A stretch of 64,000 nt of DNA. Source: an uncultured bacterium. Lineage in GTDB: Bacteria; Fidelibacterota; Marinisomatia; Marinisomatales; JACNKV01. Position numbers and translations under genes: made by a program. The notes beneath the pieces are model-generated. The model searched no databases and was not told the origin of the DNA. It saw nothing but the letters and a program-made list of their open reading frames with translations. This document shows positions 19,802-23,638 of this stretch, one piece after another (within the stretch, counting starts at the first letter, position 1; each line of letters begins with the position of its first letter). The stretch covers positions 53,323 to 117,322 of the forward strand of contig CAYQZV010000004.1 of assembly GCA_964422145.1 (NCBI GenBank). The letters are read 5' to 3'.

Positions 19802-19900
19802 ACCTTCACTTCCGTGCGATGTTACGATATTCAATGAAACGGACTTGTTCCAATAAATTATTCAAATAATTATTCATGATTATTTGATCTTCTGTAAAAG

Positions 19901-19928
19901 AAAAGCCCCGGGAAACCGGGGCTTTTTT
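19901..19928. terminator. Bidirectional intrinsic terminator
   Basis: AAAAGCCCCGG-GAAA-CCGGGGCTTTTTT between convergent genes. Confidence 0.9.
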
Positions 19929-19946: not shown

Positions 19947-20963
19947 TCAAATACTATGCTGTTTTTGATGGAATTCAGGGCTGTTGAATTTATCATCATC
20001 TGAATCCCCATCAACATCTGGTTTTTTCTTCGGAGCTTTTTTCTTCGGTTTCCGTTTCCGTTCAACGGGCTGCTCTTCTAAATCAAACTCCTCTGAAAAC
20101 ATTTTTCGACTGGTTTCTTTTTTCCGCTGGAAGAAAATCCGTTTCTTCGGTTTCGGAACTTCCTCTGCTCCGACAGCTTCAAGATCTTCATCTGTCTCTT
20201 TGATTTCTTCTGGTTCTTCTTTTTTCACGCTTTTCTTCAACGAGTCTTCATCAAAACTGAACACTTCCGGATTCACCATCCCATAGATCGTTCCGTATCC
20301 GCGGGTGATCCCGTTTCCGACTCCGATGTAATTCGGCAACATAAAGTTTGTCCGAAATTCCCCGAAGAACGATCCCCAGTTATTTTCATCCACCGGTTTC
20401 GGGAATAAAGACGTCAGCGCTAATTTTGTGTAAATTTTGTCTTCGATGTCTATTCCCATCTCCCGTGCTAAAAACACAATGTTTTGCCCGAGCAGACGGT
20501 TTAAGTACGTGATCCGTTCAGTATTATTCAAGAATCTGTATCGGTTTCCAGTCGTTTGGTTCAACGCTACCCAAGGGGTGATAAATCGATAGCGGATCAA
20601 TCGATCAACCGGCTTGAATCGGTCGTCAATCTCTTCAATATCGACATCCATGACCTGAAACGTAATGTTCCCGAAGTCGAGTACATCCAGTTTCTTGGCT
20701 AATGACAAAACCGGCTCGACACCTTCATGAACCCCGATGATGTAAATTTGCTCATTCAGAATTTTAACCTGAACCCGGGGATACAAAAAATGTTCTCTGT
20801 ATCGTCCGTCCAAAAGTGGGACAATATGTTCTTCGGGGAAATGGCTGATGAAAACACCTTTGACTTGGTAAGGCGTTTTTCTCACCGGTTTATCCGTAAT
20901 GACTCTTACAATTACGGTTTTTATGATTCTCTCTTCTATATTCGGAGATAGCTGTTCATTCAT
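19947..20963 (-). CDS. cas6: Stand-alone Cas6b-like RAMP protein with charged C-terminal tail
   Basis: YPRVQVK, YRFITPWVALNQ, FFGEFRTNFMLPNYIGVGNGITRGYGTI (Cas6 G-rich loop GhGxxxxxGhG). Confidence 0.82.
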   Translation of the reverse strand: MNEQLSPNIEERIIKTVIVRVITDKPVRKTPYQVKGVFISHFPEEHIVPLLDGRYREHFLYPRVQVKILNEQIYIIGVHEGVEPVLSLAKKLDVLDFGNITFQVMDVDIEEIDDRFKPVDRLIRYRFITPWVALNQTTGNRYRFLNNTERITYLNRLLGQNIVFLAREMGIDIEDKIYTKLALTSLFPKPVDENNWGSFFGEFRTNFMLPNYIGVGNGITRGYGTIYGMVNPEVFSFDEDSLKKSVKKEEPEEIKETDEDLEAVGAEEVPKPKKRIFFQRKKETSRKMFSEEFDLEEQPVERKRKPKKKAPKKKPDVDGDSDDDKFNSPEFHQKQHSI

Positions 20964-21020
20964 ATATACCTCATAAATAAATAGATTATTTACTACACCA
21001 ATGCTGGAATATAGGACTTT

Positions 21021-22268
21021 TTATCTTCCCATAGTATTTAAAAATTCTTCATTGTCTTTTGTGCGTCTCATCTTATCCAACATGAATTCCATCGCTTCAA
21101 TCGTATTCATTTCATCGAGCAGTTTCCGTAAAATCCACATCCGGCCGGTTCCCAGCTTGGAGAGAAGCAGTTCTTCTTTTCGCGTCCCGGAACGGATAAT
21201 ATCAAATGCAGGGAACAAGCGGCGGTCGCTGAGTTTCCGGTCCAGAACCAGTTCCATATTTCCCGTTCCTTTGAACTCTTCAAAGATGACATCATCCATC
21301 CGGCTGCCAGTGTCGACCAATGCGGTTGCGATGATGGTCAGACTTCCGCCTTCTTCCGTATTCCGTGCGGCACCGAAAAACTGTTTTGGTTTTTTCAACG
21401 CGTTGGCATCCACACCACCGGACAGAATCTTTCCGCTATGCGGGATGACGGCATTATGCGCACGTCCCAGCCGGGTAAGACTGTCAAGCAGGATCACAAC
21501 ATCCTCTCCGTATTCGACCATTCGTTTTGCTTTTTGAAGCACCATATCGGTCACGGCAACGTGGCGTTCCGGCGGCTCATCAAACGTTGAGCTGACAACT
21601 TCAGCGTCCACATTGCGTTTCATATCTGTGACTTCTTCCGGTCGTTCATCGATCAGTAAGATCAGCATTTTTGTATCAGGATGATTTTTCCTGATCGCGT
21701 TGGCGATTTTCTGCAGCAGAACGGTTTTCCCGGTTTTTGGCTGGGCAACGATCATACCCCGCTGCCCTTTTCCGATCGGTGAGATCAGGTCCATGATCCG
21801 CATGGACATGTTTTTCTGATCGGTATCCAGATTGAATTTTTCATCCGGATGAAGCGGGGTGTAATTATCAAACATAATGGCTTTTTTCATGTCTTCTATC
21901 GGCCGGTCATTCACCATTTCTGTTTTTAATAACGCATAAAATCGTTCTTTGGCTTTCGGCGGACGTATCTGCCCATAAACCGAATGACCGGTTCGCAATC
22001 CGAGGCGTTTAATTTGCGACGGGCTGACATAAATATCATCCGGTCCGGGGAGATAGTTAAAATCTGCACTGCGAAGGAATCCGTACCCGTCTGACATGAC
22101 TTCCAAGACACCTTTTGCATACAGTGTATTGTCTTTATCGTCCCGTTCCTGAAGAATACGCATGATCAGCGCTTGTTTATTCAGTCCCGAGTACCCTTTA
22201 ATATTCAATTCTTGAGCAAGCTTCGTCAATTCCTTGATTTTGAGGGAATGGAGCTTATTCACATCCAT
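21021..22268 (-). CDS. rho: Transcription termination factor Rho
   Basis: [57 protein letters not shown]. Confidence 0.99.
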
Positions 22269-22363
22269 AATAGATAGTCCTTTAATTATTGATTTTTCCG
22301 GGGGAAAAGAGATTTATATAAAACCTTGCGGTAAATCGGTTACATCCGACGCGACAAGTTACA

Positions 22364-23638
22364 TTAAATGATCCCTTTGTCAAAGAAAAAACCGAAACGC
22401 TCATAAACAGCAGTTGCAATATAATGACTGCCGAAAATCAGCCCCGGTTTATCGTCTGAAATTGTCTCTTCTAATCGTTGAATGGCATGGATAAATTCAT
22501 CGTCTCGAATCGTGGGAATTCTCACTTGACTCATCGATGCTTCCAGTGCATCAGCACTCATCAATCCGGTTTCGGGGCACGATGTCACAATCAGGGATGA
22601 AAATCCTTCTGACAAAATGGAATGCATTTTCTGCAATTCTTTGTCAGCTTTCAGCACAAAAACACCGACCGGTTTTTCTGTGTATTGATTTTTCAGCCAG
22701 CGTAAAACGGCTTGAATTCCGTGTTCATTATGAGCCACATCATAATAAATCGGACGGTCAGAACTTAGACGTTGTATCCGCCCCGGCCATTGTGTTTTTT
22801 GCAGGCCGGCATTGATCGTTTCTGAGGCGATATCGGGTATAAACTCACGAACCGTTGAAATAGCTGTCGCTGTGTTCAGGGCTTGATATTCCCCCAACAA
22901 TGGAGTGACAAATGTCTCGTTTTGATATAAAAATTCTGTTCCGTTTAATCCGGTTTGTATAATACGAAGGTCTTTCTGTTTCACCTGGTGAATCGGGGCG
23001 AATCTTTCTTTGGCCGTTTTCAGGATCACATGTTCTGCTTCCCGCTGTTGTTCCGCTAAAATCAACGGCGTGGACGGTTTGATGATTCCGGCTTTTTCAC
23101 CGGAAATTGATGTCAGTGTATCGCCTAAAAACTCCGTGTGGTCCATTCCGATCGGTGTGATCACCGTGATCTCAGGAACAATGACATTTGTTGAATCCAA
23201 TCTCCCCCCGAGTCCTGTCTCAATAACGGCAACATCCACCCGGCATTGTTTGAAATAACTGAATGCCATCGCCGTCGTCGTTTCAAAAAATGTGGATTGA
23301 ATTTCTTCGATATCGTGCTGATGCTGCTGAACAAAGTCAATAATATCATTGTCTGAAATTGGAATGCCGTTTACACGGATTCGCTCATTAAACTTGATCA
23401 AATGCGGCGATGTATAAAGTCCGACCGTCAATCCCTGCTCTCGAAGCATAGATGCGATCATGGTGCAAGTGGAGCCTTTTCCGTTTGTTCCGGCAACGTG
23501 AATAGCGCGAAACGTATCCTCTGGATGTTGGCATCGTTTTAATAATTCTTTTGTGTGACCGAGGCCGACCTTGATCCCCTTTCGCTCTAAACCGAAAAGA
23601 TATTGAAGAAGGGGATCAATCGATTTATCAGTGACCAA
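22364..23638 (-). CDS. folC: Folylpolyglutamate/dihydrofolate synthase
   Basis: HVAGTNGKGS, YTSPHL, ETGLGGRLDSTN, WPGR, DVAHN. Confidence 0.96.
   Translation of the reverse strand: MVTDKSIDPLLQYLFGLERKGIKVGLGHTKELLKRCQHPEDTFRAIHVAGTNGKGSTCTMIASMLREQGLTVGLYTSPHLIKFNERIRVNGIPISDNDIIDFVQQHQHDIEEIQSTFFETTTAMAFSYFKQCRVDVAVIETGLGGRLDSTNVIVPEITVITPIGMDHTEFLGDTLTSISGEKAGIIKPSTPLILAEQQREAEHVILKTAKERFAPIHQVKQKDLRIIQTGLNGTEFLYQNETFVTPLLGEYQALNTATAISTVREFIPDIASETINAGLQKTQWPGRIQRLSSDRPIYYDVAHNEHGIQAVLRWLKNQYTEKPVGVFVLKADKELQKMHSILSEGFSSLIVTSCPETGLMSADALEASMSQVRIPTIRDDEFIHAIQRLEETISDDKPGLIFGSHYIATAVYERFGFFFDKGII

Follow-up and report, generated by a model that had tools for sequence, protein, structure and literature searches.

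Why would a protein that processes the RNA of CRISPR systems be encoded directly behind the gene for transcription termination factor Rho, among housekeeping genes? The question is raised by a stretch of 64,000 nucleotides from an uncultured bacterium of the Marinisomatales (assembly GCA_964422145.1, contig CAYQZV010000004.1, positions 53,323 to 117,322), which was analyzed as a whole and is hereafter called the window. In it, rho (21021..22268, minus strand), which encodes a 415-aa protein with the Pfam domains Rho_N, Rho_RNA_bind, and ATP-synt_ab, is followed on the same strand, 57 bp downstream, by an open reading frame (ORF) of 338 aa with an ATG start (19947..20963), which we call cas6L and which profile and structure matches mark as derived from Cas6b. 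A first-pass annotation, made from the letters of the window, had placed the ORF correctly and had proposed that it encodes a domesticated Cas6b acting as a partner that binds RNA hairpins or as a regulator of Rho-dependent termination. Comparisons across the phylum indicate that cas6L is very probably a domesticated Cas6b, widespread in the phylum, united in one clade, and held under strong constraint. With modest confidence, we further propose that its product is a Cas6b-derived RNA binder, settled behind rho, that works on the RNAs of the cell as part of a Rho-linked process.

Cas6b identity and the former catalytic site

The product of cas6L genuinely has the Cas6b fold. Both Cas6b families of Pfam matched it above their cut-offs, Cas6b_C (PF17262) over aa 120-226 (E = 5.9e-25; 88.1 bits, cut-off 39.4) and Cas6b_N (PF17955) over aa 14-110 (E = 1.5e-9; 38.3 bits, cut-off 25), and the Pfam scan returned no other domain. 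It was likewise matched by the PADLOC models for Cas6/Cas6b (8e-42) and Cas6b (1.9e-40), and NCBIfam gave no match. A profile of 15 family members aligned with residues 21-217 of the Protein Data Bank (PDB) entry 4z7k, the Cas6b of Methanococcus maripaludis, with an E value of 2.9e-41. Consistent with the profile matches, an AlphaFold model built on 40 relatives reached a mean predicted local distance difference test (pLDDT) value of 82, exceeding 90 over approximately aa 10-230, and its best PDB match in Foldseek was 4z7k_A (E = 4.2e-18; template modeling score 0.78 on the target), with further Cas6 enzymes ranking next. The model displays the double ferredoxin/RNA recognition motif (RRM) fold of the solved Cas6b structures. 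From the Pfam limits, the pLDDT profile, and the profile alignment, the Cas6b core, with its two RRM-like halves, can be delimited to aa 14-227 (20283..20924, minus strand).

The motifs on which the first-pass annotation had based its assignment, namely YPRVQVK, YRFITPWVALNQ, and IGVGNGITRGYG, are all in the translation. The glycine-rich loop, G216-N-G-I-T-R-G-Y-G224 (20292..20318, minus strand), is kept and bears a signature of its own: not one of 122 rho-linked proteins departs from G216, G222, and G224, and the loop reads G-N-G-I-T-R-G-Y-G in the rho-linked set versus G-K-Q-V-A-R-G-F-G in the CRISPR-linked Cas6b. In public records, the family members that carry a name are labeled either "CRISPR-associated endonuclease Cas6" or "hypothetical protein."

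The active site has a different history. For the M. maripaludis enzyme, Richter et al. (PMC3479195) found H38 and H40 to be mutually replaceable and the double mutant to be nearly devoid of cleavage. In the HMMER alignment to 4z7k, these residues fall on P49 and L51 of cas6L, so that the canonical H-N-H position is occupied by the triplet P49-L50-L51 (20811..20819, minus strand); the pairing of EEIVHNH with EEHIVPLL, which the annotation had given, was thus right. We extended the comparison to 138 distinct proteins from the stored loci, 122 of them rho-linked and 16 not behind rho. Among the rho-linked proteins, histidine stands at neither catalytic column in 122 of 122, the first column being mostly P or S and the second L, I, or M, versus H-N-H in all 16 CRISPR-type Cas6b of the same phylum; in a broader sample, both histidines are present in 101 of the 138 cluster representatives of at least 195 aa (from 150 returned). 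In an alignment of 40 members, none of the columns that are invariant or nearly so holds a histidine. The near-invariant positions of the rho-linked set are instead G53 (119/122), R56 (115/122), R63 (114/122), and G197 (120/122), the first three of which lie close to the old active site. Judging from these alignments, the catalytic H-x-H pair is lost in cas6L and its rho-linked relatives, as the annotation had suspected, and the protein is probably an RNA binder rather than a nuclease of the H-x-H type.

Beyond the core, the protein carries a tail rich in K, E, and D (aa 228-338; 19950..20282, minus strand), which is found only in the window's order: the tailed forms are 291-363 aa long (n = 96 distinct), and the relatives in other orders 198-263 aa. 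The tail contains 21 K, 18 E, and 11 D among its 111 residues, matches no Pfam family, and was modeled mostly with pLDDT below 70, except for approximately aa 250-280 (77-89). It ends in the motif DDKFNSPEFHQKQHSI (19950..19997, minus strand), which is conserved over the 96 distinct long proteins with the consensus F-N-x-x-E-[YFH]-H-x-K-Q-H. An atlas search with the tail alone recovered only fragments of the same family, with scores of at most 0.85.

Independence from CRISPR and descent of the rho-linked family

The presence of cas6L is independent of CRISPR. As the annotation had stated, the window contains no CRISPR array, according to a k-mer scan of the whole genome, and no match to Cas1, RAMP, DevR/Cas7, Cas5d, or Cas3_HD. 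The genome (2.21 Mb, 94.5% complete) harbors a single array, located on another contig and composed of at least 29 repeats of 36 nt, the reverse complement of which ends in a Cas12a-type stem. The array is flanked by cas12a, cas1, cas2, and a 189-aa ORF that occupies the cas4 position and has no Pfam match, so the only CRISPR locus of the genome is of type V-A, a system in which Cas12a matures its own CRISPR RNA (crRNA). No match to RAMP, DevR/Cas7, Cas5d, or Cas3_HD was found in the genome, and Cas1 was matched only on the other contig, although at 94.5% completeness this result does not prove that class 1 effectors are absent. With respect to class 1 CRISPR, cas6L is therefore solitary, as had been claimed, and no type I-B or III locus lacking its own cas6 was encountered. 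At the level of the order, Cas1 was detected in 10 of 81 genomes, and wherever a genome has a type I-B locus, that locus comes with an H-N-H Cas6b of its own. The type V-A locus itself (contig C2 of the window's genome, approximately 82116-89800; L003:18100-20000 and L004:158-5804) runs from the array, interrupted by a run of N, through cas2, cas1, and the 189-aa ORF to a 1280-aa Cas12a, with a gene for an AbiEii-family toxin on the opposite side of the array.

By record title, and as far as the best 80 of 166 loci show, the family belongs to Marinimicrobia (Neomarinimicrobiota/Fidelibacterota). Within the window's order, cas6L was found in 37 of 40 relatives, and across the phylum a match of any kind was obtained in 92 of 201 genomes, 79 with the rho type and 13 with CRISPR-type Cas6b only, the types being assigned from two groups of profile scores together with the examined contexts. 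The rho type is present in 50 of 50 genomes of the window's order outside family f12 and in 0 of 13 genomes of f12, which are approximately 1 Mb in size. In other orders of the same class, it occurs in f19 (5/5) and f21 (5/6) and was not found in f17 (0/6), f18 (0/1), or f20 (0/1); in other classes, it occurs in f22 (4/6), f24 (3/26), f26 (5/33), f29 (4/4), and f31 (2/2), with none in f28 and f30.

Linkage to rho extends far beyond this genome, so that a linkage confined to it, which the annotation had named as a refuting outcome, did not occur. Of 157 loci collected, 138 have rho immediately upstream in the same orientation (the loci being drawn from two collections, the genomes of which may overlap), with a median spacer of 47 bp (range 10-409); the remaining 19 comprise 16 CRISPR-linked Cas6b, two genes at a contig start, and one with a gap of 537 bp. 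Counted by genome, adjacency was established in 85, 61 through loci and 24 through coordinates, and independent metagenome contigs with at least 400 bp of upstream sequence have rho there in 69 of 69 cases. Wherever checked, that is, in these 85 genomes and 69 contigs, no rho-type gene was seen away from rho. The arrangement with its short spacer persists down to 24-30% protein identity (Rho itself is 65-95% identical across the phylum), and the pair is intact in five loci without folC or aat nearby (L051-L053, L058, and L060).

A profile search of the whole library returned 1503 proteins at E ≤ 0.001, from which a FastTree phylogeny of 167 rows was computed (18 rho-linked, 16 CRISPR-linked, and 133 cluster representatives of at least 195 aa, after removal of five gapped at the catalytic site). 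In it, all 18 rho-linked rows group with 22 His-less representatives in a single clade of 40 rows (Shimodaira-Hasegawa-like support 98), which holds no His-bearing member, and the CRISPR-linked Cas6b of the phylum fall outside it. Three other His-less representatives also lie outside the 40-row clade. As a separate observation, P0152, P0227, and P0245 are recorded as further His-less representatives outside the rho-linked clade, and a metagenome scan for the divergent His-less P0131, P0137, and P0138 yielded no close relative (best 37%). Over 131 loci, identity of cas6L to the window copy declines with that of Rho (Spearman 0.66), a value that is descriptive only because the loci are related.

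The gene is under strong constraint. Eighteen columns are invariant across the 40 members, down to 29% identity, and relative to the nearest species, the nonsynonymous divergence (dN) is 0.048 in the core and 0.151 in the tail, dN alone being reported because synonymous sites are saturated even within the genus. Frames are intact and free of internal stops in the rho-type matches examined, with the exception of one split copy. In this copy (G076:C3:24546-25147), the rho-linked gene is represented by two matches side by side, one over profile positions 8-175 and the other over 185-225, and it may be a frameshifted or decaying copy.

The probable rho-cas6L transcription unit and the site behind rho

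Sequence features suggest that rho and cas6L probably share one transcript. The 57-bp spacer (20964..21020, minus strand) holds a GAGG 7 nt upstream of the cas6L ATG and no terminator-like site in a pattern scan, nor does it fold notably (-6 kcal/mol, z +0.28), in line with the annotation's report that the two genes are not separated by a terminator. The terminator that it had placed after cas6L is real: a bidirectional intrinsic terminator at 19896..19928, absent from the pattern-scan list and found from sequence and fold, begins 18 nt past the cas6L stop codon and consists of a stem at 19905..19922 with a U-tract extending to 19896 and an A-tract extending to 19928. Its hairpin (-20 kcal/mol, z -4.4) was equaled by none of 200 shuffles. 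It closes the rho-cas6L unit and, being readable on both strands, would also serve the convergent aminotransferase gene. At the other end, the conserved element TTTG-N19-TAACTT (22356..22384, minus strand) extends over the stop codon of the FolC-type gene that lies upstream and may resemble the Bacteroidetes-type -33/-7 promoter consensus. GTAAYTT was found at the matching stretch in 61 of 89 distinct order-level rho leaders; the TTTG-N19-TAAYTT element ahead of rho is a candidate promoter.

The surroundings are of the housekeeping kind and the codon style is host-like, as annotated: neighboring genes encode UvrA, a class I/II aminotransferase, a FolC-type Mur ligase, an Asp/Glu racemase, and an amidase; the GC content of cas6L is 0.424 versus 0.418 for the window; and its codon use is close to that of the neighbors (cosine 0.89; neighbors versus their own pool, 0.91-0.94).

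Two noncoding segments of the unit show features of their own. The rho leader, approximately 90 nt long (22269-22355, minus strand), follows the promoter-like element, and the leaders of many relatives contain a short GC stem, a C-rich loop, and a U-run. A 5-pair leader helix named by eye had 66.7% of cells pairing versus at most 46% in slid controls, the rows tested being the same that gave the structure; RNAalifold on 24 rho leaders returned no consensus pair, and the window's own leader folds no better than shuffles (z -0.13). Of 92 distinct order-level rho-cas6L spacers, 26-31, from several families, share the word AGGTGTAG(CA), located approximately 25-40 nt ahead of the start or overlapping the ribosome-binding site, and the window's version is GGTGTAGTA. 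The word could be a processing or autoregulation site. A regulon marked by it was not supported: it is not enriched in the window's genome, where 28 copies occur, 6 of them intergenic, at no consistent distance to starts.

What else occupies this site bears on where cas6L came from. In genus g67 of family f28 (G078 and G122), a classical Cas6 (PF01881, Cas6_I-A) lies directly behind rho and is followed by two ORFs without Pfam matches (200 and 471 aa), DevR/Cas7, Cas5, an HNH protein, and Cas3; in the example L212 (G078:C1:93500-103459), rho spans 504-1763 and cas6 1891-2721. Orthologs of this Cas6 in ten other genomes are on contigs without rho. The g67 operon indicates that the site behind rho receives cas operons; the site thus seems to be a recurrent landing place for them, and cas6L may be the remnant of an ancient type I-B operon that landed there. 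Seven tandem units of 50 nt, spaced by 50, 50, 86, 50, 86, and 50, were also noted at L212:2703-3124; they begin within the last codons of cas6 and do not constitute a normal CRISPR array. Where cas6L is missing, aat directly follows rho in f12, f17, and f20, with a 4-nt gap in f12. The Rho of f12 is longer (439-452 aa in L162-L164, from genomes of approximately 1 Mb), and in two of these three loci its N-terminal 45-50 residues could not be aligned with the window's Rho.

Function of cas6L and comparison with known systems

In the explanation that we favor, the ancestor of cas6L would have been a type I-B crRNA endoribonuclease of the Cas6b family. In an ancestor within the Marinimicrobia, the H-x-H pair and the link to CRISPR would have been lost and the gene would have settled behind rho, to be inherited vertically thereafter as an accessory housekeeping gene. 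The protein would act as a sequence- or shape-specific RNA-binding protein, with the RNA-holding scaffold of Cas6b and its glycine-rich loop retained and the conserved R56, R63, and G53 gained next to the former active site. It probably targets RNAs of the cell as part of a Rho-linked process, most likely in such a way that particular transcripts would be marked or shielded by cas6L and the loading of Rho would be altered there; the charged tail and its terminal motif could form a second contact surface in the window's order. The individual components of this proposal differ in strength: that the function is tied to Rho at all remains tentative, and direct binding to Rho, which was addressed by modeling, seems unlikely. 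Less likely still would be a CRISPR-derived specificity subunit that recognizes an RNA element, contacts Rho, and loads Rho on, or bars it from, chosen transcripts.

Complex prediction for Rho and cas6L from family alignments gave weak support for binding, with a median score of 0.50 (runs of 0.55, 0.34, and 0.50) versus 0.00 for the best of three controls; the runs shared at least 46% of contacts, with a partner pLDDT of at least 70, and no interface was reported. Of 80 solved complexes used for calibration, 58 attained the mark, as did 2 of 110 mismatched pairs, and scores of at most 0.60 were those of 7 of the 80 solved complexes and of both mismatched pairs that passed.

Several observations weigh against the favored explanation. 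A complex score of 0.50 lies in a band that is more often wrong than right unless the interaction is likely beforehand. No column of Rho separates 40 carriers from 20 noncarriers of cas6L, one weak column, Q7, aside, and together with the patchy absence of the gene this argues against an obligate, conserved interface on Rho. Of the earlier proposal, domestication is well supported; binding of RNA hairpins and binding to or regulation of Rho remain conjectural, the complex score being weakly in favor of contact and no Rho column covarying with the gene. Furthermore, the folC-rho-aat block is syntenic also in 20 genomes without cas6L, so the adjacency may reflect inherited order rather than coupling, and cas6L was not found in f12, f17, f30, and most of f24, f26, and f28, families whose genome sizes differ. 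As to an RNA target, no Rfam family reached its gathering score in the 64 kb, and AGGTGTAG, present in only part of the spacers, marks no regulon in the window's genome. A 13-mer and three 9-10-mers derived from relatives' type I-B repeats gave 142 matches with up to two mismatches versus approximately 49 expected under uniform composition, a search judged uninformative because none pointed to the rho-cas6L locus and the genome is AT-rich. Finally, loss of the histidines is not proof that cleavage was lost, since cleavage activity is reported for a Cas6 of Sulfolobus that lacks the canonical His (PMC3652601).

Some of the same observations would fit a housekeeping RNA chaperone or processing factor unrelated to Rho, engaged, for instance, in the maturation or protection of a stable RNA and left over from a decayed type I-B operon, its position being merely inherited gene order. 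The persistence of the folC-rho-aat block without cas6L, the complete and unrelated type I operon behind rho in g67 (G078 and G122), the lack of a Rho column that tracks the gene, and its absence from many lineages all speak for such a factor, but the pair survives in the five loci from which folC and aat have moved away, the spacer remains short (median 47 bp) through the whole depth of the phylum, and the complex prediction weakly supports contact with Rho (0.50 vs. 0.00 for the best control); on balance, we regard it as rather unlikely. If, conversely, the protein were a direct regulator of Rho comparable to Rof/YaeO or phage Psu, with the Cas6 fold as a protein-binding scaffold and RNA binding secondary or lost, the conserved adjacency and the complex score, in its weak band, would be explained and the conserved C-terminal motif could serve as a docking peptide. 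Yet conservation is highest in the glycine-rich loop and the RNA-facing core, nothing in Rho covaries with the gene, the tail and motif are confined to one order whereas the linkage is phylum-wide, and the prediction reported no interface, which leaves this possibility with little likelihood.

The two readings that deny the protein a new role fare worse. An orphan but active crRNA endonuclease, serving arrays elsewhere in the genome through residues other than His, would agree with the name "CRISPR-associated endonuclease Cas6" given to some members by NCBI, with the presence of an array in the window's genome, and with the plasticity of Cas6 active sites, of which the His-less cutter of PMC3652601 is an example. 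The sole array, however, has Cas12a-type repeats beside cas12a, no class 1 effector genes were found in the 94.5%-complete genome, Cas1 is present in 10 of 81 genomes of the order versus cas6L in all sampled outside f12, and type I-B genomes have their separate H-N-H Cas6b; the idea is largely refuted, and we consider it highly improbable. A decaying, functionless remnant might be expected from a solitary gene with lost catalytic residues, but the intact frames (the split copy in G076 aside), the low core dN of 0.048 with saturated synonymous divergence, the 18 invariant columns in 40 members down to 29% identity, and retention across the depth of the phylum rule it out.

Transposons, plasmids, and other defense modules are known to have recruited Cas proteins. 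A lone Cas6 that shed its catalytic histidines, parted from CRISPR, and turned into a conserved core gene of a large marine phylum would be a clear example of an RNA-handling protein of the immune system converted into a cellular RNA-binding factor. The constant place of cas6L behind rho offers a concrete lead, open to testing, toward an accessory factor of Rho-dependent termination that would be new. To our knowledge, few protein modulators of this process are known, and it has hardly been studied outside model bacteria. Should the specificity-subunit reading hold, a phylum would possess a sequence-addressed layer of Rho control built from a part of an immune system. The label "CRISPR-associated endonuclease Cas6," which some records bear, makes CRISPR counts for Marinimicrobia genomes too high and obscures the actual biology. 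A natural Cas6 that binds tightly without cleaving, together with its RNA site, could moreover become a tool for RNA tethering, a use reported for engineered dead Cas6 (PMC12475213 and PMC13478208). Our search of the literature, which did not extend to supplementary gene-neighborhood tables, found nothing on a rho-linked or housekeeping Cas6.

The closest characterized relative is the type I-B crRNA endoribonuclease of M. maripaludis (4z7k/4z7l), with which cas6L shares the two-domain fold, the Pfam families, the Y-P motif (Y49 in that enzyme and Y61 in cas6L), the F-x-T-P-W block, and the glycine-rich loop. Unlike that enzyme, cas6L has P and L in place of H38 and H40 and F in place of Y47, has neither an array nor a Cas5/7/8/3 partner, sits behind rho in a probable housekeeping operon, and carries the added 111-aa charged tail. 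The CRISPR-linked Cas6b of the same phylum, represented by 16 loci (L143-L161 without four f22 loci), resemble cas6L in core length and conserved blocks, with approximately 25-30% identity, but keep H-N-H and their own form of the loop, and none of the 16 has rho in the stretch examined around it. A Cas1 match lies within approximately 8 kb in 6 of the 16 and a CRISPR array, with 37-nt repeats starting GTTTCAATCC..., in 3 of the 16; the other 9 were classed as CRISPR type by their sequence and the absence of rho.

On the side of termination, NusG, Rof/YaeO, Psu, and Hfq are small protein modulators that change where Rho acts; they may be functional analogs of cas6L, with no likeness in sequence or fold. 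On the side of CRISPR, Cas6 of Sulfolobus solfataricus (Sso1437) is likewise a Cas6 without the canonical catalytic His, and in the study describing it, its authors weigh RNA recognition and chaperone-like action as heavily as catalysis (PMC3652601); unlike cas6L, Sso1437 remains a crRNA-making CRISPR enzyme and belongs to a different Cas6 family. Recruitment of Cas proteins from adaptive immunity has precedents in type IV systems, CRISPR-associated transposons, the Streptomyces I-E/STAND module, and haloarchaeal HRAMP, as outlined in passages of PMC8730458, those of which that concern Cas6 or Rho mention no rho link and no solitary or core-operon Cas6. As these passages present them, such derivatives are multigene effector modules found mostly in mobile-element or defense contexts, unlike cas6L, a single gene in a probable housekeeping operon.

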